The notes: generated by a model from the letters alone, not told the origin. 64,000 nt of DNA from an uncultured Clostridia bacterium (GCA_934149075.1 CAKPDR010000001.1:1916-65915); one strand, 5' to 3'. Positions 9,287 through 61,989 are shown, counted from the stretch's first letter. Numbers and translations are program-made.

Positions 9287-9311
9287 GAACTTAATGCCTT
9301 CGGGTTATGAG
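9287..9311 (-). repeat. left att-core-like repeat (attL candidate)
   Basis: gaactta-atg-ccttcgggttatgag. It matches 22 of 25 positions at 56693-56717 with the same spacing, and lies about 100 bp downstream of the integrase stop. Confidence 0.5.
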
Positions 9312-9373
9312 GGCAGAAAGTTTTTTAAAAGAAAGCCTTTATTTCCAGTCTTTTGGAGATTTATTTTTTAGAC

Positions 9374-9397
9374 TTTCCCTTTATTTTCCCTTTATGT
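9374..9397. repeat. arm-type direct repeat (2x TTCCCTTTAT), left copy
   Basis: The 24-nt ctttccctttattttccctttatg is identical to 56548-56571. Confidence 0.55.
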
Positions 9398-11098: not shown

Positions 11099-11460
11099 AT
11101 CCTTTCACTTATAAACTTTTTTAATTAGTTACAAGTGAAATTGGTATCTTTCACATAGGTATTTAAACCTCTTCGTTATCCAACCAAGCAACTCCTCAAT
11201 ATAAATTAAGCCAAGCTGAAGTATCATTATTACTAATATAGATCTTCGCCAACACAAACTTACCATCGTTCGCTTTTTCCCTCATTATAGTCGCTATTTA
11301 TTTTTAATAACATTCGCCTTCTTGGAGCTCCTTATATTAGTTAAAGTCTTGTAACTAATATATTTACTTGTCAATGTGCTATCCGTTTTCTAAAAGAAAA
11401 CAAGTAAGAAAGATCATCTCCTCTCACTTGTTTTTTCAGTTAGCACATCACATTTTAGGG

Positions 11461-12557: not shown

Positions 12558-14855
12558 TTATATTTTTGGCAATACTTTATCTAATCTCTCACTGATTCTT
12601 TTTTGTTCTTCTACTGGTGGTATTGGTATAAGCAAATTATTCAAACTTTTAGAATTTAAAGTATTCCCTTTTATTGCATTTTTTGTTTTACCATATTTAG
12701 CTAAAAATGGTAACGTTTTAAAAAGATAATCCCTTATTATTTTTTCTTCATCTATAAAAGGAAAAATAGATATAATTGCTTCATTATGAAGACACGGCTT
12801 ATCTAATATAGAAACTCTACCTATCGTTAATTTAAAACTCATTAATAAAGTTCCTGCTGGAGATAATTCTCCACCAAATTTTTTTTCAAACCCTTCTTTA
12901 CTGATTCCTTCTTTTGTAGTTGTAATATGCCCATTCTCAACCATATCCGCAATAGAAACCCAAGGATATTCAACACCCCAATATTGATTTTCGGCTCTGG
13001 GAGGAGTTTTACCAATTTTTAAATAAGCAATATCGCCTAATCTGCACCATCTCCAATTTTCAGGAATATCAAATAATTCATCTTCATCCAATATTTCTTC
13101 TATTTTTTCATTCTTTATTCTTTTATTTTTTATTAGTTCTTTTCTTTTATATCTAGAATTATTGAGTAAATCATCAACAGAACTATCGGATGATAATTGC
13201 TTAGTTATTTTTCCTTGTAAAGCTGCTTGTAATATTGAACTTCTTAAAGCTTCAGGAAATTCTTTGTCTAAATTTATACTTGTTTCATTTAGTTTTTTAA
13301 TATCTATCAAATCTATATTTTCATTACCCAAAACAAATCCTTTAAGATTATTTAATGCTAAATTCAACTTAACTTCAATTTTTTCTTTAGCTTTTAAATA
13401 ATTTGTTAAAGTTTCTTCAGGTGATAGTATTATTTTTTCTTCATCTGGAAATTTACAATAGTCTAAACTATATCTATTTTCTCTAATTTCTTCAATTGAT
13501 ACTTTTCTTGATTTCCAAGTTTCAGTCATAGATTCATCTTCTTTTATATCTTTAATCTCACCTCTATTATCCCACCACTCATCAATTTCTTTAAACTTTT
13601 CTCTAGTCATAGGATTTTTAGTTAAACTAAATTTAATTCCACCAGGCAAGTCAAATCTATAGAACCACACATTTTCTGTCTTTCCTTTATTATCAAAAAA
13701 TAATAAATTTGTAGCTATCTGGGTATATGGAGCAAAACAACTTCCTGGCATTCTAATAATTGTATGTAAATTAAACTCTTCAAGTAACTTTTTCTTTATC
13801 GCTATTTGTCCATTTTCATCTCCAAATAACAAGCTATCTGGTAATACAATTCCACATCTACCATTTTTCTTTAGCCTATACATTATCTCAATCATAAATA
13901 AATCCGCTGTTTCTGAAGTGCTAAGATCTGACGGAAAGTTTTTTTGAACAATATTTAATTCTGATCCACCATATGGAGGATTCATTAGTATTACATCAAA
14001 TTTTTCCTCTTCTGTGTATCTTCTGACATCTCTTTCTAAGGAATTTCCGTGTACAATATCAGGGACTTCAATATCATTTAACAACATATTAGTTACACAT
14101 AACATATATGGTAATTTCTTTTTTTCGACACCATAAAAAGAATGTTGCATTTGTTCCATTTGCTCTACAGTAGGATTTTGCTTTTTCATAAAATTTAATG
14201 CATCTACTAAAAAACCTCCTGTCCCACAAGCAAAATCAGCTACTTTTTCGCCTATCATAGGTTTTACTTTATCAACAATTAAACTAGTTATTGCTCTTCC
14301 AGTATAAAATTCTCCATCGTCTTTCTGCAGTCCTTTTAAAAGTTGTTCATAAATATCATTAAAGGCATGTCTTTCGTTATAATCAGAAAAATCTATTTCA
14401 TCAAATTCATTTATGAGTTGTCTTAATAAAACACCATTTTGCATAAAATTACTAGATGATTTGATAAATTCTTTAACCAACATTGCTATGTCACTTTCAT
14501 TTTGAAATAGATATATATCTTTTGAATTTTCTTTTATAGGTTCTCCTGCTAAAACCTTAAATAATTTATTATTAACAAAATCTATTAATTCTTCTCCAGT
14601 TAATTGTTCTTTATATGAAGATGATGTTGCCCAATCTCTCCATCTATATCCTATTGGTAAAATAGGCTCATAATTTGGATTCGTTATTTCCCATTCTTGT
14701 TCTTTGTAATCAAATATTTTTAAAAATAAAATCCAAACTATTTGTGATAATCTCTGTTCATTTCCCCCAACACCAGCATCATCTCTCATAATATCTTTCA
14801 TTCTTTTTAGTAATGATGATATTGCCATTTTAATTTTCCTCCTTATATAGTTCAA
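12558..14855 (-). CDS. hsdM: type I restriction-modification methyltransferase fused to a single HsdS target-recognition domain (HsdM-S fusion)
   Basis: 765 aa. The N-terminal HsdM has motif I VADFACGTGGFL and motif IV NPPYG. The C-terminal roughly 190 aa is a typical HsdS target-recognition domain with the conserved C-terminal helix (PENWRWCRLGDIAYLKIGKTP...LIPIPPVEEQKRISERLDKV). Confidence 0.8.
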   Translation of the reverse strand: MNYIRRKIKMAISSLLKRMKDIMRDDAGVGGNEQRLSQIVWILFLKIFDYKEQEWEITNPNYEPILPIGYRWRDWATSSSYKEQLTGEELIDFVNNKLFKVLAGEPIKENSKDIYLFQNESDIAMLVKEFIKSSSNFMQNGVLLRQLINEFDEIDFSDYNERHAFNDIYEQLLKGLQKDDGEFYTGRAITSLIVDKVKPMIGEKVADFACGTGGFLVDALNFMKKQNPTVEQMEQMQHSFYGVEKKKLPYMLCVTNMLLNDIEVPDIVHGNSLERDVRRYTEEEKFDVILMNPPYGGSELNIVQKNFPSDLSTSETADLFMIEIMYRLKKNGRCGIVLPDSLLFGDENGQIAIKKKLLEEFNLHTIIRMPGSCFAPYTQIATNLLFFDNKGKTENVWFYRFDLPGGIKFSLTKNPMTREKFKEIDEWWDNRGEIKDIKEDESMTETWKSRKVSIEEIRENRYSLDYCKFPDEEKIILSPEETLTNYLKAKEKIEVKLNLALNNLKGFVLGNENIDLIDIKKLNETSINLDKEFPEALRSSILQAALQGKITKQLSSDSSVDDLLNNSRYKRKELIKNKRIKNEKIEEILDEDELFDIPENWRWCRLGDIAYLKIGKTPPRAENQYWGVEYPWVSIADMVENGHITTTKEGISKEGFEKKFGGELSPAGTLLMSFKLTIGRVSILDKPCLHNEAIISIFPFIDEEKIIRDYLFKTLPFLAKYGKTKNAIKGNTLNSKSLNNLLIPIPPVEEQKRISERLDKVLPKI

Positions 14856-17217
14856 TTTCTATTTGCTTCATTATCCTTATATAATTATCTAAATCATCAT
14901 CAAATATTTCTTTTTTTACTTTTAATGCTGTATAACCCATATCTTGAATTACTGGTAAATTAAATATTTGTGGTTTTAATAATTGTGAATAGTCCTGTTT
15001 TATATATTCGTTTAAAATTGCCGTAATAATTTCTTTTTTATTTTCTTCTAAATTATTATAAACTTTTGACTTATATACCTTTTCAAGTCTTTCCTCTTTT
15101 GATAACGGTGGAATCTTGTATCCTAAAAGACTAATCACATCAAATTTGTCTATATTGTATCCTAATTGCAATTTCATTTTATTTATAAATTCTGCAGATA
15201 ATAATAATGTTCTTGTGAATTCATCTTTATCCGATGCCTTCATAAAAGATAAATAAAAATCATTAAATTTAGGATATTGATCTAATATATTGTTTTTTAC
15301 ACAGTTATCAATATTCTCTCTTACTAGTTGTCCATTTTCATCTCTATATTGCACTATTTCATTTTCAATTTTAACTTCTTTTCCTTTTATATATGCTTTT
15401 TCAAAATGTCTTTTTTCTATTTTTGTTTGATTCGTTAAGTTTTGAGAAATTCCTTTTGGAAATCTATCTTTTTCATCTATATTCATAACAGCAACTGCAT
15501 CTCCATCAAATTCAGGATCTTCAAATTTAGTATAATTCTTTCTAAAATCTAAAATTGTAAAATGCAATTTGCTTTTCTTTTCATCATCTATAACAAAATT
15601 TTCATTTATTCTAGTTCCCCTACCTATTGTTTGCTTAAATTCAGTCATAGAACCTATCGTTTTATCTAATACTATTATTTCACAAGTTTCACTATCAACT
15701 CCTGTTGACATCAACTTACTTGTTACTGCAATAACTGGATATTTTGTATTTGGATCTGTAAAATTTTCTAATTCAGCTTTTCCGATTTCATCATCTCCAG
15801 TTATTTTCATAATATATTTCGGATTTTCTGCTACTAAATCTGAATTTAAATTTTTCAATTTTAAAACCATTGCATCAACATGTTCTATATTTTCGCAAAA
15901 TACAATAGTTTTCGCATATCTGCAATTATTTTCTTTCATATACTCTGTGATTCTTTTAGCAACAATTTCTCGTCTTGAATCGATTGCAATAGTTCTATCA
16001 AATTCTTTTTGTTCATAAACTCTATTTTCTAATGGCTGACCATAGATATCTTTTTCATCTATTGAAGGTTTATAACCGTTTTTATCAATATCAAGCTCAA
16101 TTGAAATTACTCTATACGGAGCCAAAAATCCATCTTCAATACCTTGTTTAAGCGAATATGTATATAGCGGTTTGCCATCAGTTTCTGCACAAAAATACCC
16201 TATATTTGAGACATCTTCAGTTTCTTTAGGTGTCGCAGTAAGTCCTAATTGAGTTGCACTGCTAAAATATTCTAATATTTCATGCCAATTCGAATCTTCA
16301 GATGCTGAGCCTCTATGACATTCATCAACAATTATCATGTCAAAAAAATCTGGTGGTAATTCTTTATAAAAATCCTTTTCACTTGATTTTAGTTGTTGAT
16401 ATAATGCTGTATAAATTTCATACGCAGTATCTTTTTTTATTCTATCACTTTTTATTTTAACCATAACTCCTGCTTCAACGAATGGTTTAAAATCTTTTTG
16501 CATAGTTTGATCTGCTAATACATTTCTATCAACTAAATATAAAATTTTCTTTTTGGTTTTTGATTTCCATAATCTCCATACAATTTGAAAAGCAGTAAAT
16601 GTTTTTCCTGTTCCAGTTGCCATTACTAGCAACAATCTATTTTTTCCTTGCGCTATTGCTTCAATCACTCTATTAATAGCAATTCTTTGATAATAACGAG
16701 GTTTTTTAGGATTATCTCTTGTAGTATTTTCATAATAAGGTTGGTTTATTATATTTATTTCTTCCTCTGTCAATTCTTTTTCTTGTATATATCTATTCCA
16801 TAATTCTTCAGCATATGGAAAATTATTAATATTCATAATTTTATTATTACCTGAAATCATATCTTGTTCAATCAAATCTTTTCCATTGGTAGCATATGCA
16901 AACGGAATATCTAGTATATTAGCATATTCAATCACTTGTTGATAACCTTCCATTGCTGAATGTTCAATTCCTTTTGCTTCAACAAGAGCCAAAGGAATAT
17001 TATTATGATAAAGTAACAAATAATCAGCTTTTTTAGGTTCTCCTCGATATACTTGTTCTCCATTTATATTAACTCTTCCCTTTGTAAAGTAATATTCCAT
17101 TATAATATTTTCTGAATTATTTTTCCATCTTTCTTCAATGATAGGTGTTATATATTTTCTTTTTGTATTTTCTTCATTTTTTAATTGTTCTTCTAAATCT
17201 TTCCCTTCAAATTCCAT
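14830..17217 (-). CDS. hsdR: type I restriction endonuclease R subunit
   Basis: 795 aa. The HsdR_N PD-(D/E)xK region is KKADYLLLYHNNIPLALVEAKG. The SF2 helicase motifs are I MATGTGKT, II VDECHRG, III GLTATP and VI QTIGRGTRI. Confidence 0.85.
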   Translation of the reverse strand: MEFEGKDLEEQLKNEENTKRKYITPIIEERWKNNSENIIMEYYFTKGRVNINGEQVYRGEPKKADYLLLYHNNIPLALVEAKGIEHSAMEGYQQVIEYANILDIPFAYATNGKDLIEQDMISGNNKIMNINNFPYAEELWNRYIQEKELTEEEINIINQPYYENTTRDNPKKPRYYQRIAINRVIEAIAQGKNRLLLVMATGTGKTFTAFQIVWRLWKSKTKKKILYLVDRNVLADQTMQKDFKPFVEAGVMVKIKSDRIKKDTAYEIYTALYQQLKSSEKDFYKELPPDFFDMIIVDECHRGSASEDSNWHEILEYFSSATQLGLTATPKETEDVSNIGYFCAETDGKPLYTYSLKQGIEDGFLAPYRVISIELDIDKNGYKPSIDEKDIYGQPLENRVYEQKEFDRTIAIDSRREIVAKRITEYMKENNCRYAKTIVFCENIEHVDAMVLKLKNLNSDLVAENPKYIMKITGDDEIGKAELENFTDPNTKYPVIAVTSKLMSTGVDSETCEIIVLDKTIGSMTEFKQTIGRGTRINENFVIDDEKKSKLHFTILDFRKNYTKFEDPEFDGDAVAVMNIDEKDRFPKGISQNLTNQTKIEKRHFEKAYIKGKEVKIENEIVQYRDENGQLVRENIDNCVKNNILDQYPKFNDFYLSFMKASDKDEFTRTLLLSAEFINKMKLQLGYNIDKFDVISLLGYKIPPLSKEERLEKVYKSKVYNNLEENKKEIITAILNEYIKQDYSQLLKPQIFNLPVIQDMGYTALKVKKEIFDDDLDNYIRIMKQIEIELYKEEN

Positions 17218-26559: not shown

Positions 26560-26592
26560 AAAAAAGACTTTGAACTTACAAAGTCTTTTTTA
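26560..26592 (-). terminator. strong intrinsic terminator after the S8 peptidase gene
   Basis: aaaagactttg-aactta-caaagtcttttttt. Confidence 0.7.
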
Positions 26593-26596
26593 TATG

Positions 26597-28813
26597 TTAT
26601 TCAAATTTTATTATTTCTTCTGCTGATGCATATATGTCTAATCTATTTTCTATGTTTACTCTATTGACAATCCAATTTCTCATAGTACATTGATCAATAA
26701 ATTCTTGCATTCTATTTTTTCCAAACATTTCTTTTAATGTTATTACTACACCAAATTTTAATCCCCTATCTCTTTCTAATCTTTCTTTATTAGTTAATTT
26801 TATTCCCCATAAATTAGAATTAAAACTTTTTCTTGGTACCTTTGTATCTTTTATTTCATCTACTACAATTTTAACATTATCCCATTTTCTATATAGCTCT
26901 CGAGCAGTTGCTTCATTGGTTGCTCTATCTAATTCCCCGCCTTGAGTATTTCTATTAATTGATCTTATATCTTTCACACCCATTCTGCCAAATTGTAAAT
27001 CTAATTCCGTATTGGTATAATCAACTCCTTGACTTCTAGTACATTTAGGAAAATAACATAAAACAGCCTTAGCATAAAATGGAAATTTTTCATTTACCAC
27101 TGGTACAGGCAAATTGTATGTATATGTATAATACGAATTTGCATTTCCTTCTATATAAAATTTAATTTCATCTTTTTGACCTAACATTACCTCTGATATC
27201 TTTGTTGGAACTACTCCATATCCTAAATATTCTTCATCTTTGTTGGTTTTATTCCAGCCTACTGCGGAATCAATTATTAAAGCTTTAGCAATTTCTCTAG
27301 ATAAATTCATTTTATCTATCAGGTAACTCAATTTTCTAGAAATCCAAGGTGCAGCAAATGATGTTCCTCGTTGAATATCTAGTCCAGTAGGAGTACATAC
27401 ATTTATATATTCATTTGTATCTCCGCCAAAAGCACAAACATCTGGTTTAACAAAAAAAGATAATACCTTTCCTTTTCTAGCATATGATGCTTTGTCTCCA
27501 TTTTTATCTACAGCATTGACAACTAATGAATTTATAGAATCAGCAGGAGCACCTATTCTCACTATTTCTTTTGAATTTTTTTTATTAGTTCCAGCTACAA
27601 CAAATATAACATTATTTTCATACTGTATTTCATCTAAAGCTGCTGCTTCTGGTGATATATAATTTTGACTTATTTCAAATTTTGAGCCCAATGAAATATT
27701 CCATACATGAATATCTTTATTTTCTTTTACGATTCTTTTTATTTGATTAATTATGTCATATGAATTATTAACTCCTGCTTTTGCGACTCCAAAGTGTCTT
27801 ACTTTAAAAAGACCACATTCATCATCCCATTTTGTATTTGTTCTAGCTCCATCTACAATTATTGAAGATACTTCCGTTCCATGGACATAATCTTCAGCTT
27901 CTCTCGGCATATCTTTATTTAAGCAATCTGTATAATCAACCCATTTGCTGAAATATACATTTTCATCAAATAATGTATCTATAACACCAATAGTTGGTTC
28001 ACTCGTTGGTAATGGCATATCTAAAAAATTTATGTTTGTGTCTATTTTATTTTCTGTTTCTTGATAGTATGTTGCAAAATCTGTCATAGCCATAGAAACT
28101 AAATATGAAGCATTTTGTCTAATTTTAAATAATATTGATGAATTATTAACATATATTGTATCATTTGAAAACACTTCATATTCTGTATTCTTCAAACCAA
28201 TTCTATTCATTAGTTCTACTATATTAATTCCTGTATCAAAAATGGTTATATAAGATTTTACTTCATCAATAATATCTCCATTTTCATATACATCAAACTT
28301 TTCAATATCTATCAAATCTGTTACATACTTTTTAAATGCACTTTTAACCATATTATGCTTTTTTAATAAAGTTTCTTTTTTGTCTATTAAACTAAAATTT
28401 TCCGAATTTATAACGCCATCAAAGCCATTATTTATAATATCTATTAGTATATTTATTCTTTCTATGCTTTTATTTAAAGTCTTTTTATCAATATAATATG
28501 TAATTATATGCTTTTTATTCTTAATGTCAGAAAACCTTACTCCTCTAACATAATTATTTGATGGTTCACTTCCAATAGAGAAAAATCCTTTTAGTCTTGA
28601 TGACTTTGGAATCACTCTATTGTAATATACACTAACTAATGCTCCTGGTATTATAGTTTTATCTTTCCAAAATTCATTTAATCTCTCTAAATCTTTTTTC
28701 AACTTAATCAAATCATCAGATTTTACCTCTTTTGACTTAGCTATTGAATAATTTATTGGTCCTTTGTATTTTGATGATTCTAATCTTCCTTTTAATTCTA
28801 ATAAATCATTCAT
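26597..28813 (-). CDS. subtilisin-like S8 serine peptidase (IetS-like)
   Basis: 738 aa with a catalytic triad: Asp in IGVIDTLFDE, His in HGTEVSSII and Ser in GTSFAAPWIS. It overlaps the upstream ATPase gene by 8 nt. Confidence 0.8.
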   Translation of the reverse strand: MNDLLELKGRLESSKYKGPINYSIAKSKEVKSDDLIKLKKDLERLNEFWKDKTIIPGALVSVYYNRVIPKSSRLKGFFSIGSEPSNNYVRGVRFSDIKNKKHIITYYIDKKTLNKSIERINILIDIINNGFDGVINSENFSLIDKKETLLKKHNMVKSAFKKYVTDLIDIEKFDVYENGDIIDEVKSYITIFDTGINIVELMNRIGLKNTEYEVFSNDTIYVNNSSILFKIRQNASYLVSMAMTDFATYYQETENKIDTNINFLDMPLPTSEPTIGVIDTLFDENVYFSKWVDYTDCLNKDMPREAEDYVHGTEVSSIIVDGARTNTKWDDECGLFKVRHFGVAKAGVNNSYDIINQIKRIVKENKDIHVWNISLGSKFEISQNYISPEAAALDEIQYENNVIFVVAGTNKKNSKEIVRIGAPADSINSLVVNAVDKNGDKASYARKGKVLSFFVKPDVCAFGGDTNEYINVCTPTGLDIQRGTSFAAPWISRKLSYLIDKMNLSREIAKALIIDSAVGWNKTNKDEEYLGYGVVPTKISEVMLGQKDEIKFYIEGNANSYYTYTYNLPVPVVNEKFPFYAKAVLCYFPKCTRSQGVDYTNTELDLQFGRMGVKDIRSINRNTQGGELDRATNEATARELYRKWDNVKIVVDEIKDTKVPRKSFNSNLWGIKLTNKERLERDRGLKFGVVITLKEMFGKNRMQEFIDQCTMRNWIVNRVNIENRLDIYASAEEIIKFE

Positions 28814-29855
28814 TGTTTATCCCCCTTGATACACTACTTTTTGAAATTCCCGTTAATTTTTCAATTTCTCTAACAGAAAAACCTTGCTCTTGAAGTTTTT
28901 TCAGATCATTTGTTAATTTTTCATTTGTTATAGTTTCATAAATTTTTGACAGATATCCATATTCCATAGTCATATCACTAAAAGCTATTGAACTCCTTAT
29001 TATATTTTTAAGATCTCCTGGATATGGTAATGTTTCTACCAAACTATAAATTTTATTAAGTATTTTATATTCAGGTTTAACATTTGAATATTTTTTAAGT
29101 TCAGAAGTAATTATTGTATCCGCTATTTCCTCTAAATCTTCTTTACTATATCTATTAAAATCAACAATATAATCAAATCGTCTTAATAATGCTTTATCAA
29201 ACTGTTTATATAAATTTGTAGTTGCAATCAATAATATTTTTTCATTTAAATTATCAAATTCTTTTAATAAAGTAGATGTTACCCTTCCCATTTCTCTTAA
29301 ATCATTAGAATTAATCCTATCTAATGAAATAGCATCAATTTCATCAAATAAAATAATTACTTTATCTGGTTGTTTTAGACAATTTATATCATCAAAAACT
29401 TGAATCAAATTTTTAGAAGTCTGACCAAGTTTACTATCTACTATTCTATCAAATTGCACTGAATATAATTCTCTATCTAAAATTCTTGCAATTTGTTTGG
29501 CTGCTTCTGTCTTTCCTGTTCCAGAGTCTCCAACAAATAAAAATTTATTTACATTAGATTTTTTATTAACAGCATTTAATATTCCCATTATATCTATTTC
29601 TATAGGTTTTGGTACTTTAAATGTATTTGATGGATTATTCATCTTTACAAAAAATTCTGAATAATCATCAACGAATTGAGGACTAAAAGTATTGGCATTT
29701 GATAATAGTGCCATTATATATCTTGCCAACTCTTCATCCCCACTATTTTGAAAATCTGTTGCAATTTCATAAGCTTCATTTCTAAATTCTTTATCATTTC
29801 CATCTATGTGATATTTTATTAAATTAATTACATTCTTCTTTTTCATATCAATCAA
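28806..29855 (-). CDS. AAA-family ATPase with a C-terminal HTH (IetA-like)
   Basis: 349 aa with Walker A FVGDSGTGKTEAAK and Walker B IILFDEIDA. The C-terminus, REIEKLTGISKSSVSRGI, is an HTH. Confidence 0.75.
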   Translation of the reverse strand: MIDMKKKNVINLIKYHIDGNDKEFRNEAYEIATDFQNSGDEELARYIMALLSNANTFSPQFVDDYSEFFVKMNNPSNTFKVPKPIEIDIMGILNAVNKKSNVNKFLFVGDSGTGKTEAAKQIARILDRELYSVQFDRIVDSKLGQTSKNLIQVFDDINCLKQPDKVIILFDEIDAISLDRINSNDLREMGRVTSTLLKEFDNLNEKILLIATTNLYKQFDKALLRRFDYIVDFNRYSKEDLEEIADTIITSELKKYSNVKPEYKILNKIYSLVETLPYPGDLKNIIRSSIAFSDMTMEYGYLSKIYETITNEKLTNDLKKLQEQGFSVREIEKLTGISKSSVSRGINNE

Positions 29856-29932
29856 TCCTTTCTACTTTTAGTAGTATATCATTATGGGACAAATTATGCA
29901 ATAGTTGGGACAATATTTTATAAATTTATAAT

Positions 29933-30481
29933 TTACACCTCATTTCCCCAACAATCCCAACCATCTACTGTTTGTCTTGCAAATAATTCTATTCTAGGCA
30001 TATCTCCTACAAGTTCAACTATTTTATCTCTTACTATTGCTGGTTTTTTGCTATGTTCTTCTATATGAGTGTCAATTATTTGTGATACTTTATTTGATTT
30101 TCTTTTTATAGTTCCTTTTGTTCCAATTAAGCAGATTTCTGAATTTGCCCTAGTCCAATGTCCTAATCCGAAAAACCATGTATCACTTATTTTATTTCTT
30201 TTTACCCAATTAAATCCACAAGTTTTGTACTTAAATCCCCATTCTTTCATAACTTTTAGTCCATCTAATAAGCAGGGAAAAGTTACCCATAAGAAAAGGA
30301 CACAATCTTTTTCCGATATATTCTTGATTGTATCCTTCATATTAACTATTTCTTCAACTTTCATTGTCTTATAATGTTTTTCTGCTGTTCCCATTCCATC
30401 TCTCCATGTATTATAATGCCATGGAGGATCTGCATAAATTATATTATATTTATTTTCCGTATTATTTATATCTATTACCAA
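29933..30481 (-). CDS. MT-A70-family DNA N6-adenine methyltransferase (orphan)
   Basis: 182 aa with the DPPW catalytic motif, IIYADPPWHY. Confidence 0.8.
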   Translation of the reverse strand: MVIDINNTENKYNIIYADPPWHYNTWRDGMGTAEKHYKTMKVEEIVNMKDTIKNISEKDCVLFLWVTFPCLLDGLKVMKEWGFKYKTCGFNWVKRNKISDTWFFGLGHWTRANSEICLIGTKGTIKRKSNKVSQIIDTHIEEHSKKPAIVRDKIVELVGDMPRIELFARQTVDGWDCWGNEV

Positions 30482-31210
30482 TTAAACCTCCTTGTTTCCA
30501 AATAAATATTCTCTAGGATTTATAAAATCTCCATTTTTCGATTTTCTAATTTCAAAATGCAAATGTGAGCCTGTGCTATATCCAGGATTAGGATCACGAT
30601 TAGGATCTCCTCCTTGAATTCCAACAACAGTCCCTTGCTGTATTTCTTGTCCTTCTATCACATCAATCCTAGCCAAATGTGCATAGAAGGTATAATAAAT
30701 TGTTCCATTCTCAGTACTATGTTTTATTTCTACACAATTTCCATAGCCTTGTTGTACTCTCGCAAATACAATAGTTCCTTTTTCAACTGCTGTAATATTT
30801 GAGTGCCAAGCTCCTGCTAAGTCTATTCCTGTATGAAAACTCTGCTTTCCAGTTACAGGATGAATTCTTGTTCCAAATTCACTTGTTACAGTTGCATTTT
30901 GAACAGGCATAGGAAATGTTCCATTATATTCTAAATCTTCAATAGTTACAGTAGGAGCATAAGTGTCGTGCATTTCAACTAATGAATAATAAGAACTATC
31001 TGTAGCTTGTCCATCATCTTCAAATCCAAAGAAACTTTTTATTTTATCTATTGTTGATGTTAAAGCAAATAGTGGTATCATTATTATAAATGTAAATACC
31101 ACTATCCCTATAATTATTCCTATAATTAATCTTTGTCTTTTTTCTTCATCTGTTATTTGACTTATTACTATCTTTGCGATTAATTTTGCTGTAGCAGGAT
31201 CTAAAGCCAT
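30482..31210 (-). CDS. M23/LytM peptidoglycan endopeptidase with an N-terminal TM, acting as the T4SS cell-wall hydrolase
   Basis: 242 aa with HTGIDLA...HLHFEI. Confidence 0.8.
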   Translation of the reverse strand: MALDPATAKLIAKIVISQITDEEKRQRLIIGIIIGIVVFTFIIMIPLFALTSTIDKIKSFFGFEDDGQATDSSYYSLVEMHDTYAPTVTIEDLEYNGTFPMPVQNATVTSEFGTRIHPVTGKQSFHTGIDLAGAWHSNITAVEKGTIVFARVQQGYGNCVEIKHSTENGTIYYTFYAHLARIDVIEGQEIQQGTVVGIQGGDPNRDPNPGYSTGSHLHFEIRKSKNGDFINPREYLFGNKEV

Positions 31211-33036
31211 TACCTACCACCACCTTTACCAAAATACTCAAACTCAATAGGAAATATATCAAACCTAACAAATATTCTGTTTGAGCCTATGATAAATAAA
31301 GCCAAACCTCTTTTCTTTTTATATAAAAACTCTGATTGTCCCTCACTTAACTTAAATAGCTCCGTTGTTTCTTCTAAATTCACTCCATCAGTTCCCATCA
31401 ATATTTTATATGTAGCCATATCAAGTATAGCTTGTCCATACATTTTTATTGAATCATCAAGAAAATCTACAATAGAATGTGAAATTATAACTAAACTTCC
31501 TTCATATTTTCTACATCTTTTTGCTACATTTCTTAAAAATATTGTTGTTTCAGGAACTCTAGAATCAATTAACAAATAAGCTTCATCACAAACTAGCATC
31601 GTTTTTTCTTCTTTATCTCTACTCATTATCTCCCAACAATAAGTTAGAATATTAAAATATTGAGCTCTTTTTACTTTGTCATCTGCATTTTGTAAATTAA
31701 AGGTATCAAAACATACGATTTTTGCATTATCATCTATTGAAGTATAACCATTAAATAAGCCTTTTTCAGCACCAATGCTAATACCTCTTAATAGACTTCT
31801 TAATGTTTCATATATTTTTTGTTTTTCCTCATCAATTTCATTACTTGCTTTCTCTCTTAAAAGATTATATAAATCTGTCATAATAGGAAATTTATTATTT
31901 GGTATTCCTGAAATATCTGTATCCCAATCAATATTAAATCTGTTATATAATTCTTCTAATACTTCCTCTAATCGAGCTATATGTATTGAATCAAGTTCAG
32001 GATATAACAATTTAAAAAATGTTCTTAATGTTTGAAAATGTAGAGCCATTGCTCCCATTCCTTTACTTTTATATTCAACTTCATCTGCTTCTTCATCATC
32101 TAAAGGAACTTTTTTAATTTGTAATGGATTTATTATTCCACCTTTACCACTCCCTACATCTATCCATTTTTCTCCTAGTTTCTCAACCATTTCTTTTTCT
32201 TCTCTTTCAGGATCTATCAAAATTACTTTCGTATTAGTCATATATTCATTTAATATTAAGTGCTTAGCAACTGTAGATTTTCCAACTCCTGCTGTACCCA
32301 TAATTACAAAGTTTGAGTTTGTTCTATCTCCTCCTCTTTTCCAAGGATCAAGTATTACAATTCCTCCCTTTGTATCTCTAGCAAAATAATATTTATTTCC
32401 ATCATTAAATCCTGAACTTGAAAAAGGTAATCCACCAATCCATGTACTCTCTAGCATATTTCTATCTGCAATACTTTTTACAACTGGATCTGTAATAGAA
32501 AAAGGCGACATTAACTTCAATGAGTTTTTACTCAAATTCGTTAATAATCGCCCTTTCATTTGCATTGATGTAAGCCTTGTCAAAACTGCCTTAGATCTTT
32601 GTTTTAACTCTTCTTCATCTTCTGCAATTACCATTATTGCTATTGTTACATATACTACTGTTTCTCCGTTTAAATCTACCTTTTCAATTAAATTTCTTGC
32701 ATCTTGTATTTCTCTTTCTGTTCTTTGTCTTAATATTTCATCTGTTATTCCTTCATATTGTGATTCATTTTGTTTTATTCCCCTACTTATGTTTTGCATT
32801 AATGTATCTTTTTCTGTTGGAGAAATATTTAAGCAACATACTGTATTAGGTATATTTGCAATACTTTCAAGCCATCCTATTCTTACTTTTTGAGGATATT
32901 TTGTTATTACATATACTCTTCCTAAATAATCGCCCACTCTTATATAGTTTTTCTTATATTCTATTCCACCTATTGGACTTAAAATATTAAGTAATGTTTT
33001 ATTTTCCATTATTCCATCAATTTCTTTTTTCTTCAA
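31210..33036 (-). CDS. virB4: VirB4/TrsE-family conjugal transfer ATPase
   Basis: 608 aa with Walker A VIMGTAGVGKST and Walker B LVCDEAYLL. The N-terminus is TraE/TrsE-like. Confidence 0.85.
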   Translation of the reverse strand: MKKKEIDGIMENKTLLNILSPIGGIEYKKNYIRVGDYLGRVYVITKYPQKVRIGWLESIANIPNTVCCLNISPTEKDTLMQNISRGIKQNESQYEGITDEILRQRTEREIQDARNLIEKVDLNGETVVYVTIAIMVIAEDEEELKQRSKAVLTRLTSMQMKGRLLTNLSKNSLKLMSPFSITDPVVKSIADRNMLESTWIGGLPFSSSGFNDGNKYYFARDTKGGIVILDPWKRGGDRTNSNFVIMGTAGVGKSTVAKHLILNEYMTNTKVILIDPEREEKEMVEKLGEKWIDVGSGKGGIINPLQIKKVPLDDEEADEVEYKSKGMGAMALHFQTLRTFFKLLYPELDSIHIARLEEVLEELYNRFNIDWDTDISGIPNNKFPIMTDLYNLLREKASNEIDEEKQKIYETLRSLLRGISIGAEKGLFNGYTSIDDNAKIVCFDTFNLQNADDKVKRAQYFNILTYCWEIMSRDKEEKTMLVCDEAYLLIDSRVPETTIFLRNVAKRCRKYEGSLVIISHSIVDFLDDSIKMYGQAILDMATYKILMGTDGVNLEETTELFKLSEGQSEFLYKKKRGLALFIIGSNRIFVRFDIFPIEFEYFGKGGGR

Positions 33037-33152
33037 ATAAACTATCCCTCCTTATTTGCAACAAAAAAAGACTATCATTACTGATAATCTTTTAATATAG
33101 CCTAACTATTAAATTTGTTTTTTTTAATTGTGTGTGTTATAATTGTTATGTT

Positions 33153-33215
33153 CAATGAAATATGTGACCCCCTTATAGTACTATCATTACTGGGTTGCAC
33201 CATTTCATTGAACCA
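33153..33215. promoter_or_regulatory. 12-bp perfect inverted repeat with a 39-bp spacer upstream of virB4
   Basis: gttcaatgaaat ... atttcattgaac. The motif actatcattactg also recurs at 33084-33096 and 33179-33191. Confidence 0.4.
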
Positions 33216-33279
33216 TATTAATCGTATGTAAGAGATATGTGATAGGTATCTCTTTTATTCTATAACTTGTAAGTTATCG

Positions 33280-33999
33280 TTATTCTTCAAATAATACCTT
33301 TTGCATTCCATAAGGATTATTTAAAAAATCTTTATATATTTTATAAATTTCTGTATCTTCATATTTGATTTCTTTCATATTATTATTCATATCAATTATT
33401 TTTCCATATTTATACGATAGTAATATTGGAGAATGTGTTGCTATTAAAAATTGTGAGCCATTTTTAGCTAATTCGTGTATATAACAAAGCAAAGTCATTT
33501 GTCTTTGTGGAGATAAAGCTGCCTCTGGCTCATCCAAAATGTATAAACCATTATCCCAAAATCTATGTTCAACCAGTTTCAAAAAAGATTCTCCGTGTGA
33601 ACAAGAATGCAAATCTTCTCCTCCATAAGTTGTATAGATCAAATCACTATTATTACTAATATCCGTTGCAACATTATAAAAAGATTCTGCTCTTAAAAAA
33701 AATTTTGTTTTAGGTACTCCAAACTTGCTAATTGTTACATATTTATATAATTCTGAATAATCATCATAGTTCGAAAATTGCATATTATTACTACCGCCTT
33801 CTGGATTTAATCCTAAAGCAATAGCAATAGCTTCTATAAGTGTAGATTTTCCAACTCCGTTTTCTCCATAAAATAATGTAACAGAATTATCTATTTTTAA
33901 TTCATCAAAATTACTTAAACATTTTATATTAAAAGGATATTTACTATTATCTACATTCCCCTTATTTAATCTTACTCTATTTACAAATAAATTTTCCAT
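33280..33999 (-). CDS. small ABC-type (AAA_21/OLD/RecF-like) ATPase
   Basis: 239 aa with Walker A FYGENGVGKSTL, a signature-like SHGES, Walker B and D-loop ILDEPEAALSP, and H-loop ATHSP. Its own terminator hairpins lie downstream. Confidence 0.7.
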   Translation of the reverse strand: MENLFVNRVRLNKGNVDNSKYPFNIKCLSNFDELKIDNSVTLFYGENGVGKSTLIEAIAIALGLNPEGGSNNMQFSNYDDYSELYKYVTISKFGVPKTKFFLRAESFYNVATDISNNSDLIYTTYGGEDLHSCSHGESFLKLVEHRFWDNGLYILDEPEAALSPQRQMTLLCYIHELAKNGSQFLIATHSPILLSYKYGKIIDMNNNMKEIKYEDTEIYKIYKDFLNNPYGMQKVLFEE

Positions 34000-34063
34000 T
34001 CAACCTCACTCGCAAATTACTATTTCTAGCTTAGATTATATCACTTTATATTTTATTATACAA

Positions 34064-35247: not shown

Positions 35248-36105
35248 TTATCCTTTCTTTAATTGACTAAACTTTCTTTTTATTTGACTAGACAATTCCA
35301 TTGTCTTACTTGTAGTAACTATTACATTACTAATACCTCCTGTTCCTCCACCAAGCATAAACTCTTGTATGAATTTAGGAGTTTTTATCGCCATTATAAT
35401 TGCTGCAATACCAAATAACATTTTTACATTTAGAATTAATATTATTGCTATCTTGCATAATATAATTTGCACTAAAACTGTTAGCACACTTTTAAATAAT
35501 TTCTCTGAATAGGATTTAAAAACTCCTCCATCAGGATTTACTAGCCCAACACAAGCTAAAGGAAATCCTAATTTTAATACAAACATTTCTAAACTTCTCA
35601 TAAGAAATTGTATGTATAAAACAAATAACAATATCATTGCTATTAGAGCTACTATTGCTGTAAATAACCCTGTTGTTGCTATATTTGCAATAGCTGTTGT
35701 TAAAGATACATTATCAGTAAAGTTCATCGCAGTCAGTATTGAATTTCCAAATGAAGTAGCAACTTGAATAACCCAGTCATATAGTACGGAAAAACTTACT
35801 GCCACTACTATTGCTCTTATAAAATAAACAATGTATGTAAGTGGTGGAGTATCTGATTCTCCATCAGTCCACATTACATACATATCAAAACCTTTTTTCA
35901 AAAATTTTAACACTATCAAAGAAATTGATAAGCTTAAAATTAGTGCTTTTAAATTAGAAAAACTTATTACATTACTTCCAAAGTTTGTAGTTAAATAGTT
36001 TTCCGAATTAAAACACATATCAATTAAGCCATTAAAAGCTGAATTTATAACATTATCTGCTCCACCAATTATACTGGTTATTAGTCCAGTTAAAATTGAT
36101 TCCAA
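35248..36105 (-). CDS. polytopic membrane protein, VirB6/TrbL-like
   Basis: 285 aa with at least 6 predicted TM segments. Its position is between the pilin-like and VirB3-like genes. Confidence 0.5.
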   Translation of the reverse strand: MESILTGLITSIIGGADNVINSAFNGLIDMCFNSENYLTTNFGSNVISFSNLKALILSLSISLIVLKFLKKGFDMYVMWTDGESDTPPLTYIVYFIRAIVVAVSFSVLYDWVIQVATSFGNSILTAMNFTDNVSLTTAIANIATTGLFTAIVALIAMILLFVLYIQFLMRSLEMFVLKLGFPLACVGLVNPDGGVFKSYSEKLFKSVLTVLVQIILCKIAIILILNVKMLFGIAAIIMAIKTPKFIQEFMLGGGTGGISNVIVTTSKTMELSSQIKRKFSQLKKG

Positions 36106-36483: not shown

Positions 36484-38289
36484 CTATCTATATAAATTCC
36501 ATATTCCCCATAGTTTTATATCTTCAATTTCTTTTTGTTCTCTTGCTTGTTCTCGTTTTAATCTTAGTTGCCTATTTTCTTCTTGATTTCCCATTCCAAA
36601 CAATTTATTAAATCTCCACTTAGAAATATCAGGCAATTTTGTTATTATAGGATATAATCCTGCTTGAATGACTAAAACATAAGGTCTTTCTATTCTTAAA
36701 ATTTCATCTTCTGTCAGTAATGCTCTGCTTATTAAGTTCATTGATTCTGAATTACTACCACTTTGATATTTTGTATAGCTACTAGATCTGCTATAACTAG
36801 AAGTAGTATAAGTTCCTAATTTTTTTGAAATTATACTTGCTGTTTCATTACTTGCTGTTTTTAAATATATCCAAGTTTGGCAGTTATCTCTAATATTTTC
36901 TGCGACTTCTTTTCCATACTTGTTATCCAGTTGTGAAAAAGATTGAAGAAATAAATTAAATCTTATTTTTCTCCCTCCTGCAACAGTAAGCATATTGCTA
37001 AAAGCAGGTATTGTTGTAAAATTTCCAAACTCATCTAATATGTAATTTACTCTTGTTTTTAATTCTCCTCCTCGTTCATCGGCACTTTCTACAAGTGATA
37101 CATAATTTTGATAAATAAATAAACTTGCTAAAGAATAATAAGTCGTTTTTTCATCAGGAAGAATAATATAAGTAACTGTTTTTTCTTCTCCTGCTTGTTT
37201 TAAACTAAAATCACTTTTGCAAGTCATTCCGTATATGCTTTTACTTGTAAATAATCTTAATGTTGTTAAAGCAGATGTAAAAAAAGAGCCTCTAGTTTTT
37301 TCAGGTGCAATCCTTGCAATATTAAATATTGTACTTGAAGGATGATCAGGTGGTAAATTTTCAATATATTTATTTATCGGCATTGTCTGTCCAACTGTTC
37401 TACACATTTCTGAAATAAAAGAATACACATTTGTTAAATTTTGATATTCAGAATGCTCTTTATTGTCAAAAACAACACTCATTATTGCTCCTGCAATAAC
37501 TGACATCTCTCCATCTCTCCATATTTTTTCCATTTTTGTATCTTCATTTCCTACTAAACTTTGAGTAATATCCCAAGTGTACTCTTCAGCTTTTCTAAAA
37601 TCTCCGTTATTTACTGCATCTATAACAGGTTGTAAAAAATTATATCTTGTACTTTTTGTTGGATTTTTAAAATCTAAGGTTATTATTTTATAACCTTGTT
37701 TTTTCAAAAACTCTGAAGTGTAATGATAAATTTCAGCTTTAGGATCTGAAATAATCATACTCTCTCCTGCTAATCCTAAGTTTCCAACTGTCTGTAATAC
37801 TATACTTCTTGTTTTACCACTTCTTGTAGCTCCTACAACTAAACTATGAATATTATCATCAATGTAATAAATCCTTTCTTGCTTTTTGTCCTTTTCATAT
37901 CCTACAATAATTCCACCTGAATTGAATTCCTCTGTATTTTCCTTTGATAGTGAATTACATTTAAAAAATTTTTTAAATTCTTTTTTACTCAGCCATCTTG
38001 CCGTTCCATGTTGCCCTTGTCCCATAACTTCTGGAGTCTTTAATTTATCTGTTATATTTACTATTCCACTTTCAAAAACATTTTTACTTCCAAATCCGAA
38101 AAGAATTATAATTGTTGTTTCAATTAGCATATAGATAAGAAAAAATAGTAGTAAAATCTGTTTATTTACTACTATTTGTGAAAATTCCATATTAGAAAGT
38201 TTCAAATGAATTATCGTACTCAAAACAATACTAACAGAAATATTTAATATAGATAAAAAAGCTATTATTCCGATTTTTCTTTTTCTCAT
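36484..38289 (-). CDS. virD4: type IV coupling protein (VirD4/TraG/TraD family)
   Basis: 601 aa with N-terminal TMs and Walker A SLVVGATRSGKTRS. Confidence 0.85.
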   Translation of the reverse strand: MRKRKIGIIAFLSILNISVSIVLSTIIHLKLSNMEFSQIVVNKQILLLFFLIYMLIETTIIILFGFGSKNVFESGIVNITDKLKTPEVMGQGQHGTARWLSKKEFKKFFKCNSLSKENTEEFNSGGIIVGYEKDKKQERIYYIDDNIHSLVVGATRSGKTRSIVLQTVGNLGLAGESMIISDPKAEIYHYTSEFLKKQGYKIITLDFKNPTKSTRYNFLQPVIDAVNNGDFRKAEEYTWDITQSLVGNEDTKMEKIWRDGEMSVIAGAIMSVVFDNKEHSEYQNLTNVYSFISEMCRTVGQTMPINKYIENLPPDHPSSTIFNIARIAPEKTRGSFFTSALTTLRLFTSKSIYGMTCKSDFSLKQAGEEKTVTYIILPDEKTTYYSLASLFIYQNYVSLVESADERGGELKTRVNYILDEFGNFTTIPAFSNMLTVAGGRKIRFNLFLQSFSQLDNKYGKEVAENIRDNCQTWIYLKTASNETASIISKKLGTYTTSSYSRSSSYTKYQSGSNSESMNLISRALLTEDEILRIERPYVLVIQAGLYPIITKLPDISKWRFNKLFGMGNQEENRQLRLKREQAREQKEIEDIKLWGIWNLYR

Positions 38290-38648: not shown

Positions 38649-39596
38649 CTACATTTCCATATCTTCTAATTCTTCTAAGCTATAATGCATTTCCATTGCA
38701 TATTGTTTTTTAGCACTTTCATTTAATTCATAATGATGTGTAATATCTTTTTCATGTTCTTTTCTTTGAAACTGTTTGATTAATTCAGCCAAAGATAAAG
38801 ACATACTCCTATATTGAGTATGCCTTTCGTATTTTTTTACACCTTTAATTCTTGCTTTATATTTTTTTTTAAAATATGCTTCCATATTTTCTTTTAAATA
38901 CTTTTCATTATGCAATTTTCTATCTCTGCATTTATAACCTTCTGAAGTTGTATATGTAATATTTTTTCTTTCTTTAATCCATGTAACTTTATATCCCATT
39001 TCGTTCATCACTTTAAAAAATTCAAATTTATTATTTGATTTTTCCATAGCAATATCAATACTTTTTTCTAACTTTTCTTTCCAACTAATCCCCTTTTGTT
39101 TTGCTTTATATTCATTAATTCTTATATCATCTACACTTGATTTTTCTCTTGTTATAGATAATCCTTGCTTAATGCATAATTTATTAGAATATGCTTTTAA
39201 GCTTTCTAAATCTTTATTAGAAAATTGTATCTTTTTACCTGTTTCAAAATTTACTGTATTCACAACAAAGTGTGAATGTATATGTTCCTTATCTTGATGA
39301 GTTGCTACAACAACTTGATAACCTTTAAAATATTTTTCTGCTATTTTCATTGCTATTTCGTGTGCTGTTTCATAACTCAACTCATCATTTGGACTAAATG
39401 CTTGAACAAAATGTAATTTTTCTCTACCTTTTGTTTTACCATACATATTTTTTATAGCCATCATTTCTTCATAAGCATTTTCTACCATGCAATCTTTTCC
39501 TGAAATAAACTTGTTATTAGTTTTCTCTTCTTTGCAAATATAATTTAAAGTTTTCTTTAATCCGACCTTGTTATTAATGAATTTAATGATTGCCAT
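38649..39596 (-). CDS. relaxase/mobilization nuclease (MobA/VirD2-like)
   Basis: 315 aa with the His triad HQDKEHIHSHFVVN and a relaxase-type N-terminus. Confidence 0.8.
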   Translation of the reverse strand: MAIIKFINNKVGLKKTLNYICKEEKTNNKFISGKDCMVENAYEEMMAIKNMYGKTKGREKLHFVQAFSPNDELSYETAHEIAMKIAEKYFKGYQVVVATHQDKEHIHSHFVVNTVNFETGKKIQFSNKDLESLKAYSNKLCIKQGLSITREKSSVDDIRINEYKAKQKGISWKEKLEKSIDIAMEKSNNKFEFFKVMNEMGYKVTWIKERKNITYTTSEGYKCRDRKLHNEKYLKENMEAYFKKKYKARIKGVKKYERHTQYRSMSLSLAELIKQFQRKEHEKDITHHYELNESAKKQYAMEMHYSLEELEDMEM

Positions 39597-42272: not shown

Positions 42273-43235
42273 TTAAAATTCCATATCATCTTCCTCAATT
42301 TTTTCTATTTCACTAACTTCAATACTTCTATCTTTCAAATCTTGTTTTATTTCTTCTATTTGTTCTTCACTAACAGATTTAAAACCTGCATTTTCAAAGT
42401 CATCTCCTACAACAAAACAATTTCCTACAATATAATCATATCCAAAATCGAGATTAGGTTTTTGATTAAGAATCTTCCCTTCTTCATTACAAACTAATAA
42501 TAAATCTTCTTTATAAGGTACTACTTCAATTAATCCTCCAACTAACTTTTGCTTAGCTTCTAATGTGTCATCTATTTTCATTACTATTGGATCTTTTCCT
42601 ACTTGTTTGTATATAACTTTTAACTTTTTCTCTGTTTCTTCTTCCATATCATACATTTCTATTATTTCTTGTAGTGAATATTTATTTAAATCTATACTTT
42701 CACTTTTATCTATATAACCGTCATCTAATAATTCAACATATCCACTCATTTCAGCATCTCTACCATAACTTCCAAAGTCAAAATATCCTTCAATTCCATG
42801 TTGTTTTAATACATCTAATAAACCTGTATCTTCAGCAAATCTATATCCATATTTTTCTTCTGCTGACATAGTCCAACTATCTATTTGATAAGAATAATAA
42901 GGTAGCTCATCTTCTTGAATAATTATATTCATTAATTCTTCAATGCTTAAATCTCCTTCTGAATTTGCATATCCTTCTATTGCTTCCATATTATAGATAT
43001 TTTCTGATACTTTTGCTAATAAATTAAGCATCTTTATGCTTTCATATTCATTAACTTTACATGGTAAATCTGTTTCAAAATCATTTATCATATATTCTTC
43101 GTATTCATCATTAAGTCCAACTACTTCTTTTAAGAATTCATCAATTTCTTCTTTTTCTTTTGGTAATTCTAGCCATCCTCCTTTTAATTCTCCTTCATTA
43201 TATTTTTCTAAATTACCAACCCATATATTAAGCAT
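42273..43235 (-). CDS. ardA: antirestriction protein ArdA with a C-terminal extension
   Basis: 320 aa. The N-terminus, MLNIWVGNLEKYNEGELKGGWLELP, is typical of ArdA, and the protein is very acidic. Confidence 0.85.
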   Translation of the reverse strand: MLNIWVGNLEKYNEGELKGGWLELPKEKEEIDEFLKEVVGLNDEYEEYMINDFETDLPCKVNEYESIKMLNLLAKVSENIYNMEAIEGYANSEGDLSIEELMNIIIQEDELPYYSYQIDSWTMSAEEKYGYRFAEDTGLLDVLKQHGIEGYFDFGSYGRDAEMSGYVELLDDGYIDKSESIDLNKYSLQEIIEMYDMEEETEKKLKVIYKQVGKDPIVMKIDDTLEAKQKLVGGLIEVVPYKEDLLLVCNEEGKILNQKPNLDFGYDYIVGNCFVVGDDFENAGFKSVSEEQIEEIKQDLKDRSIEVSEIEKIEEDDMEF

Positions 43236-50117: not shown

Positions 50118-50217
50118 AATTTTAAAAAATCCTATCTACATTATTAGTATATAGGATTTTTTATTCATTGTAAAACATATTGGTCATATTATGTATTTAT
50201 ACTACATTTAATTCTAT

Positions 50218-51195: not shown

Positions 51196-51238
51196 ATATT
51201 ATTCCTCTTTTATTGTAATTACTATATATTATAATTTT

Positions 51239-52519: not shown

Positions 52520-52529
52520 ACTTTTTTGC

Positions 52530-56547: not shown

Positions 56548-56571
56548 CTTTCCCTTTATTTTCCCTTTATG
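56548..56571. repeat. arm-type direct repeat (2x TTCCCTTTAT), right copy
   Basis: Identical over 24 nt to 9374-9397. Confidence 0.55.
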
Positions 56572-59342: not shown

Positions 59343-59418
59343 CGCGGGGTGGAGCAGTTGGCAGCTCGTTGGGCTCATAACCCAAAGGTCGGAGGTTCGA
59401 GTCCTCCCCCCGCAACCA
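59343..59418 (+). tRNA. initiator tRNA-fMet (CAT)
   Basis: 76-nt cloverleaf with a C1:A72 mismatch and three G-C pairs in the anticodon stem (ttggg-ctcataa-cccaa). The T-arm is ggagg-ttcgagt-cctcc and the CCA is encoded. Confidence 0.9.
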
Positions 59419-61588: not shown

Positions 61589-61989
61589 AAAAGCTATATT
61601 TGAATAATTAAAACAAAAAAATCAACCTTTTACAGTTGATTTTCTTGTTTTATTGTCTGGTGCGTTAGCGGAGGACGTATTCGAAAAATGTCTCGCACAA
61701 AAGCACCTTATTATCCGTTTCAAAATCAGTTATAGCAATAGTTTCAAAAAATGTATATATAAATGTGATTTTTTTGCTATTAACTATATTTTTAATTTAA
61801 CATAACTTTTAAAGTTTGGCAATACTTTTTTCTATTTTTTATCTTACACTTAAATATAAAAGAAAATTCCTCTTGTTATTTTTATAAATTTTACTTTTAG
61901 ACTTGCTAAATTTTGACAAAATTTGCTAAATAACTAAATTAGTGCTATAATGATTTAGATTTATTTTATTGAGGGGTAATATAAAATAT

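Follow-up and report, generated by a model that had tools for sequence, protein, structure and literature searches.

The gene pair and its promoter and terminator

The subject of this analysis is a pair of genes in a stretch of 64,000 nucleotides (nt) from an uncultured Clostridia bacterium (GCA_934149075.1 CAKPDR010000001.1:1916-65915). The whole stretch is referred to below as the window, and positions are counted from its first letter. In the open reading frame (ORF) calls for the window the two genes are co-oriented on the minus strand, with the gene for an AAA+ ATPase first and the gene for an S8 peptidase second, and they are carried by an integrative conjugative element (ICE). The pair belongs to the known IetAS family, a widespread family of defence and toxin–antitoxin systems, and the window does not add a new kind of system. 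What it may add is a candidate operator in front of the genes and a swappable slot in which they lie, neither of which is described in the literature searched.

The ATPase ORF (28806..29855, minus strand) would encode 349 amino acids (aa) if a TTG start codon were used, which was the length given in a preliminary description of the locus. The ribosome-binding site AAAGGA (29856..29861, minus strand) abuts this TTG with zero spacing, and an ATG at 29846 lies approximately 9 nt beyond AAAGGA. The protein starting MKKK from this ATG also has the N-terminus seen in public gene calls and in alignments of the homologues. Because the spacing is suitable for the ATG and absent for the TTG, and because the homologues begin at MKKK, the ATPase is most likely a protein of 346 aa encoded by 28806..29846, so that the ORF is as first described and its length is not. 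The peptidase gene (26597..28813, minus strand) encodes 738 aa and shares 8 nt, ATGAATGA (28813-28806), with the ATPase gene, as had been reported. The Shine-Dalgarno sequence of the peptidase gene, AAGGGGGA (28820..28827, minus strand), is within the 3' end of the ATPase gene, and this arrangement, with the overlap of stop and start codons, suggests that translation of the two genes is coupled.

The 3' end of the cassette is formed by a hairpin consistent with an intrinsic terminator (26560..26591, minus strand), identified both from its folding energy and from its position at a junction of homology with related elements. The hairpin, running from 26591 to 26560, has a 15-bp stem that leads into a T tract, with a folding energy of -16.1 kcal/mol (z = -4.1 relative to shuffled sequences). 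The terminator noted previously is thus present, although to call it strong was generous, given an A/U-rich stem with just 3 G-C pairs.

At the other end, the 5' control region (29847..29932, minus strand), delimited by blastn and direct comparison with related elements, starts directly after the stop codon (29935-29933) of a gene for an MT-A70 methyltransferase. Two TGTCCCA direct repeats are found here, both on the minus strand and both picked out by their conservation. The distal one (29906..29912) is placed just 5' of a -35-like TTGCAT (29901-29896) and the proximal one (29885..29891) is in the spacer between -35 and -10, right before an extended -10 element, TGaTATACT (29881-29873). Each is a candidate half-site of an operator. 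A general promoter scan was uninformative, with 66 sites found and 69.7 expected in such AT-rich DNA. No foreign base composition that might have pointed to recent acquisition of the cassette was seen, the cassette having 26.3% GC and its flanks 25.9% and 27.7%.

The two proteins and their family

The ATPase is matched by the Pfam AAA family (PF00004) over residues 106-234 and its catalytic motifs are intact. These are the Walker A motif GDSGTGKT (K112), the Walker B motif ILFDEID (D168/E169), the sensor-1 motif TTN (N211) and the arginine fingers R222 and R223 within RRFD, all of which are invariant in 34 sequences including the reference IteA, where the reference pair is the NCBI-annotated iteA/iteS on an Acidovorax plasmid. 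In the AlphaFold2 model, which is of good confidence (pLDDT 84) also for the HTH, an N-terminal three-helix bundle (residues 3-48) is followed by the AAA+ core (80-230), the lid (235-307) and a C-terminal three-helix helix-turn-helix (HTH) domain (315-343). A search with this model in Foldseek returned proteasomal Rpt/PAN, Rix7, FtsH, Vps4 and TRIP13, which are protein-remodelling AAA+ proteins of the classic clade. No structure of either IetA or IetS was found in the PDB by sequence search. Two further segments are near-invariant in the subfamily to which the window pair belongs. KLGQTSKN (residues 138-146), at the position of pore loop 1, has a leucine in place of the classic AAA+ aromatic residue, and its LGQTS is retained in the reference IteA too; the other segment is NDLREMGR (residues 181-188). 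From the invariance of the KLGQTS pore-loop region we infer that the ATPase may engage a protein substrate.

The C-terminal HTH domain had been considered unusual for an ATPase of this type. It is instead a regular part of the family: the C-terminus of the reference IteA, ...FSQRVLAAAYGVSQRQIRNAI, aligns with FSVREIEKLTGISKSSVSRGI of the window protein, Phe323 and Gly333 of the HTH are invariant with the reference included, and the IetA and IteA profiles align through to their last positions, that is, across the HTH.

In the peptidase the Pfam Peptidase_S8 domain (PF00082) covers residues 272-533. The intact Asp-His-Ser triad of the preliminary description is made up of Asp279, His311 and Ser485, which, together with Asn410 of the oxyanion hole, are invariant across 36-39 homologues; the three triad residues also align to the matching motifs of the reference IteS. 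The AlphaFold2 model (pLDDT 80, pTM 0.84) shows N-terminal alpha/beta domains (residues 1-245), the S8 catalytic domain (~270-535) and a C-terminal beta-sandwich (~545-720). Its Foldseek matches are Pro-Tk-SP, KP-43 and kexin/furin/PCSK9, in which the catalytic domain stands between a prodomain and a C-terminal beta domain. A hydropathy scan revealed no signal peptide or transmembrane segment in either protein, the maximum Kyte-Doolittle value over 19 residues being 1.10 (IetS) and 0.74 (IetA), and the proteins are polar at their N-termini. This is in agreement with the earlier remark that a signal peptide is lacking, and both proteins are predicted to be cytoplasmic.

The resemblance to IetAS, which had been put forward in the preliminary description, was borne out by profile comparison. 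For the ATPase the four IetA models of PADLOC came out on top (1.9e-45, 2.5e-31, 7e-30 and 4.7e-19), with TRIP13 as the next family at 5e-14, and for the peptidase the IetS models did so, PDLC02197 giving 2.3e-60 with residues 138-725 aligned to positions 128-747 of a profile of 749. Among the NCBIfam families IteA was top for the ATPase (2e-34, 119.4 bits) and IteS for the peptidase (3.3e-42, 144.7 bits; residues 119-721 aligned to positions 106-743 of 747). BLASTP against the reference pair gave 37% identity over the AAA+ core of iteA (E = 2e-24) and, for iteS, 24% identity over 536 residues that include the C-terminal domain (E = 1e-25). The equivalog cut-offs set by NCBI are 510 bits for IteA and 900 bits for IteS (NF042959/NF042956), and on score the window proteins are excluded as equivalogs of the reference pair. 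Since the scores are far below these cut-offs while the IetA and IetS profiles are still the best, the window pair is a genuine member of IetAS, in a distant subfamily.

This subfamily is present in at least 520 species-level genomes. In a survey of homologues a relative was encoded in 520 stretches in all, spanning Clostridia, Bacilli, Negativicutes, Treponema, Saccharibacteria, Actinomycetes, Desulfovibrio and others, and 80 loci were retrieved from species-representative genomes. The IetS gene is directly downstream of the IetA gene in 79 of the 80, across many phyla, and just 3 of the 80 are in the ICE family of the window. Related pairs are carried on plasmids in Clostridium perfringens, Carnobacterium and Macrococcoides; sequenced phages rarely have relatives, with 11 records, one of them near full length. 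Because the pairing is kept in nearly every locus, because so few of these loci are in this ICE family and because plasmid copies are found elsewhere, the pair is a portable two-gene unit.

The upstream regions of the homologous loci were compared in the same survey. Of the 74 unique regions, 56 contain two GTCCC motifs on the sense strand, always 20-21 nt apart. The background frequency of GTCCC in these loci is 0.37 per kb, from which the chance of such a pair is approximately 0.001 per region. The upstream consensus reads tttTGTCCCaAa...ttgaca...TGTCCCaa, with TATAAT following 7-9 nt further on, so that the -35 element is directly adjoined by one repeat and the spacer is taken up by the other. 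The repeats are co-conserved with the recognition helix SKSxVSR of the HTH, and where the helix is a different one, in the Macrococcus homologue at 44% identity and in the reference iteA, GTCCC is absent upstream. As the repeat pair is co-conserved with this helix and overlaps the promoter, it is a likely operator for the HTH of IetA, which would imply that the operon is autorepressed. No further pairs of TGTCCCA that might mark other IetA-regulated promoters were found in the window, where the other eight copies of the motif are all single. With both a conserved candidate operator and its recognition helix in hand, the hitherto unexplained function of the HTH is directly testable.

In one clade of homologues with the recognition helix IPKSTISRGL (L029-L033, also L027, L036 and L037) the upstream site is rearranged. 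In place of the two direct repeats these loci have GTCCC just once, or else GGGAC, in inverted form at -73, along with TTTGGAAC, and it is possible that helix and operator have co-varied in this clade.

The cargo slot and the element

The cassette is flanked downstream by genes for a sortase and a TED/SpaA adhesin, and upstream by those for the MT-A70 methyltransferase, an M23 peptidase, a VirB4-like protein, TrbL_4, a coupling protein and a relaxase; the annotation of these neighbours agrees with the location between adhesin/sortase and conjugation blocks given previously. That the pair is cargo of the ICE could be established from sister elements, 22 contigs being compared that encode an identical MT-A70 protein. 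In these elements the M23 and VirB4 genes, too, agree in length, and DNA identity over the shared flank is 99.5%. The AAA+/S8 pair is found between the MT-A70 gene and a conserved gene of 367 aa in 15 of the 22. In the other 7 there is a Schlafen/AlbA_2 gene with a 274-aa gene, followed by genes for a Ser/Thr kinase and a 204-aa protein or by a 263-aa gene, and these alternative genes match the PADLOC models PDC-S50 and PD-T4-6/Stk2. By blastn and direct comparison the MT-A70 stop codon marks the exact point at which homology with such elements is lost; it returns at 26564-26567, within the terminator hairpin. Each alternative cassette comes with an upstream region and a hairpin of its own. 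As near-identical sister elements hold other cassettes in exactly this slot, the pair is swappable cargo in a defence hotspot inside the conjugation gene block. The preliminary description had considered the Clostridial ICE context out of the ordinary, but carriage on a mobile element is typical of the family, as seen for pTiC58, SGI1 and the plasmids found here.

In the alternative arrays a remnant of the last ~265 nt of the MT-A70 gene, 89% identical, is located between the sub-cassettes (L012 9293-9556, L014 9298-9559). This has the appearance of a recombination scar and suggests stacking or exchange of cassettes through recombination anchored at the end of that gene. The existence in gut Clostridia of near-identical elements that differ in the cassette in the slot also provides a natural experiment on phage resistance and retention of the element.

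The host of the cassette is an ICE of an uncultured gut Clostridium. Its backbone includes a tyrosine integrase (9414-10610), a VirB4-like protein (31210-33036), TrbL_4 (35248-36105), a VirD4-type coupling protein (36484-38289) and a relaxase (38649-39596). These genes and those for the M23 peptidase, the MT-A70 methyltransferase, the sortase and the adhesin are on one strand; to their left are the housekeeping genes Mfd, SpoU and CBAH. Two exact copies of a 24-nt direct repeat, CTTTCCCTTTATTTTCCCTTTATG, are present, one by the integrase gene (9373-9396) and the other at 56548-56571. They would bound ~47 kb and are candidates for attL and attR. A 15-nt fragment resembling the 3' end of a tRNA, CCTTCGGGTTATGAG, is common to the sequences immediately outside the two copies (at 9297 and 56703); ARAGORN called no tRNA at these fragments.

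The element has further cargo. A second variable slot (33037-34063), between the TraC-like gene and VirB4, holds in the window a compact ABC-type ATPase of 239 aa (33280-33999, minus strand) that matches AAA_15/AAA_21 in Pfam and mad3, GajA, AriA and PtuA in PADLOC, and in the sister elements either a PIN_12 protein or an HTH_20/DUF1648/Cupin_2/DUF6512 set. Near the integrase end there is a type I restriction-modification system (12558-17217, minus strand) with an HsdR of 795 aa and a fused HsdM-HsdS of 765 aa, at whose position the sister elements have an N6_N4 or C5 DNA methyltransferase. A further module of defence may be formed by a cluster in the right arm of the putative ICE (48504-54020, minus strand), where an AAA+ ATPase of 537 aa with AAA_lid_6 is encoded along with a WYL-WCX regulator, a PDDEXK_4 nuclease and a DUF2779/Cas4-like protein. 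One protein of 320 aa (42273-43235, minus strand) is a fusion of an ArdA anti-restriction domain and DUF3846, and the MT-A70 methyltransferase (29933-30481) is an orphan encoded by the ICE; as both sit on the element, it carries counter-defence as well as defence genes. The Rfam pemK RNA motif was found at 11153-11230 on the minus strand, flanked by the integrase gene and a sigma-70 region-4-like gene, with 48.8 bits against a gathering threshold of 34.8. Outside the putative ICE there are a tRNA-Met (59343-59418, plus strand), group II intron RNA domains (59890-59964 and 60730-60900, minus strand) and a gene for a KwaB-like protein of the Kiwa type (61969-62913, plus strand), for which no KwaA partner was evident among ORFs of at least 90 aa.

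Proposed mechanism and comparison with known systems

It seems probable that the region 26560-29932 is a self-contained IetAS cassette, with promoter and operator, ATPase, protease and terminator, which sits in the cargo slot of the ICE and works in the following way. Free IetS would be a toxic cytoplasmic subtilase, and IetA, made from the same translationally coupled transcript, would spend ATP to hold IetS inactive and so serve as its antitoxin. These roles are those of the tested homologues of pTiC58, SGI1 and Mycoplasma mycoides and would extend to the window pair by analogy. The C-terminal HTH of IetA would bind to the two TGTCCCA direct repeats, such that the operon represses itself in the style of a type II toxin–antitoxin system. 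Either a trigger encoded by a phage or loss of the element would disable IetA and release IetS, and the growth arrest or death that follows would abort the phage infection and penalise loss of the element. The contact of the HTH with the repeats, the trigger, the substrates and an anti-phage phenotype in this host are all presumed steps, and a role of the window pair in retention of the element is likewise presumptive. A more specific proposal is that IetA is a DNA-tethered AAA+ autorepressor, positioned on two TGTCCCA repeats on the same face of the helix and coupling the state of the ATPase to expression of the toxin operon, that promoter-operator and genes travel together across phyla as a portable unit, and that in this ICE lineage the unit is one of several interchangeable defence cassettes, which recombination swaps at a fixed slot in the transfer operon with the MT-A70 gene, at its 3' end, as anchor. 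We see this as evenly poised between right and wrong.

Several points weigh against the cassette working as proposed. Its function is transferred from relatives with 24-52% identity, and the NCBIfam scores given above fall far short of the equivalog cut-offs. The closest tested relative, from M. mycoides, was assayed as a toxin–antitoxin pair, for toxicity and neutralisation only, and the Firmicute system tested against phage, from B. cereus m1293, appears from its first ~90 residues to be of another subfamily. The binding of the HTH to the operator is read from co-conservation, for which a host factor or a structural role in the promoter could also account. The N-terminal region of IetS resembles the prodomain architectures found by Foldseek, and this would also fit an ATPase that acts as an activator.

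The pair could instead be purely an addiction and competition module of the ICE, acting by post-segregational killing and exclusion of rivals with no role against phage. The history of the family fits this well, as it was first described as a plasmid-stabilising toxin–antitoxin and incompatibility system on pTiC58 (ietAS), while SgiAT stabilises the SGI1 island when excision is induced and the Mycoplasma pair of the same subfamily has been characterised solely as a toxin–antitoxin; related pairs moreover adjoin ParAB or RepB on Firmicute plasmids. On the other hand, the alternative occupants of the slot match models of defence systems, namely the PD-T4-6/Stk2-like kinase and PDC-S50, the element has more defence-like cargo, including the type I restriction-modification system, and IetAS members of subfamilies other than that of the window pair protect against phage in E. 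coli and B. cereus, by abortive infection. Roles in addiction and in defence are compatible, and a pair restricted to the former is in our opinion rather unlikely.

The prodomain-like region of IetS leads to another possibility, in which IetS is a zymogen locked by this region and IetA unfolds or strips it upon a signal, so that the ATPase activates the protease. Foldseek matches IetS best to pro-subtilases and proprotein convertases, IetA falls in the classic clade of AAA+ proteins and is of the unfoldase type, and both active sites have been reported as necessary for defence. Such an arrangement is nonetheless improbable, as in three independent systems (pTiC58, SGI1 and Mycoplasma) the protease is toxic by itself and is neutralised by the ATPase, deletion of the ATPase alone is lethal in JCVI-syn2.0 (PMC8562856) and mutated ietA could not be cloned (PMC13069673). 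Still less credible, to the extent that we give it next to no weight, is a peptidase that is secreted or processes the cell surface, whether for nutrition or for maturation of the sortase and adhesin, with the ATPase as its chaperone. The pair does adjoin the sortase and the TED/SpaA adhesin, and many S8 peptidases are secreted. A secreted or nutritional protease is, however, excluded by the absence of a signal peptide or hydrophobic segment in the hydropathy scan together with best profile matches to IetS rather than to secreted subtilases, and a protease for adhesin or sortase processing by the 7 of 22 near-identical elements that keep the adhesin/sortase neighbourhood without the pair and by the 76 of 79 homologous pairs that are outside this ICE family.

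Of the systems that have been tested, the closest to the window pair is M. mycoides TA132/133 (MMCAP2_0132/0133 = JCVISYN2_132/133), which is of the same subfamily. A132 and T133 of M. mycoides subsp. capri are 52% and 39% identical, over their full length, to the ATPase and the protease respectively, and they form a functional toxin–antitoxin system in which a subtilisin-like protease is the toxin and an AAA-ATPase the antitoxin (PMC8562856). Gene order is the same and the sizes are alike (353/757 aa, compared with 346/738 aa in the window), as is the pattern of the C-terminal HTH, and the natural promoter shares the layout, with TATAAT preceded by two TGTCC repeats at a distance of 20 nt. 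In contrast to the window pair in its ICE slot, TA132/133 is on a Mollicute chromosome, the core of the repeat is GTCC[T/A] rather than GTCCC and the recognition helix is slightly different, SKSSVALKV rather than SKSSVSRGI.

With the IetAS or IteAS systems in general (pTiC58 ietAS, SGI1 sgiAT and the anti-phage IetAS of Gao et al. 2020) the window pair has in common the overlapping genes, ATPase then S8 peptidase, and carriage by mobile elements. The catalytic residues and C-terminal HTH of the reference IteAS align with those of the window pair, whereas its N-terminal domains could not be aligned by BLAST and the promoter of iteA is without the GTCCC repeats. The ietAS of B. cereus m1293 is a Firmicute system that was cloned with its native promoter, and it behaves in the way proposed for the window pair, giving abortive infection with SPbeta yosG as trigger (Stokar-Avihail et al., preprint 10.1101/2022.08.27.505566). 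It differs in the N-terminus of its IetA (MTSSELMKKLFIAF...) and in its upstream region, which are unlike those of the window subfamily (as read from the first ~500 nt of the construct). The ietHAS system (Liu-DS4) has the same core of IetA and IetS, with protease activity needed for defence and ietA antitoxin-like, and the mechanism of IetAS was still stated as unknown in 2026 (PMC13069673). In ietHAS there is a third gene, for an SNF2 helicase, whereas the window cassette is of two genes only; with no helicase gene between promoter and terminator, the three-gene variant was rejected for the window.

The slot itself is reminiscent of the SXT/R391-type hotspots, in which alternative defence cassettes likewise occupy a fixed position of the backbone in near-identical elements. 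Hotspot 5 of SXT/R391 is an example of such a defence hotspot in a conjugative element. The window differs in that its ICE is of a Gram-positive lineage with sortase and adhesin and that the slot is within the block of transfer genes. For the pair that the slot holds, the comparison connects the IetAS label of the defence catalogues with the TA132/133 of minimal-cell work, which are one and the same subfamily.

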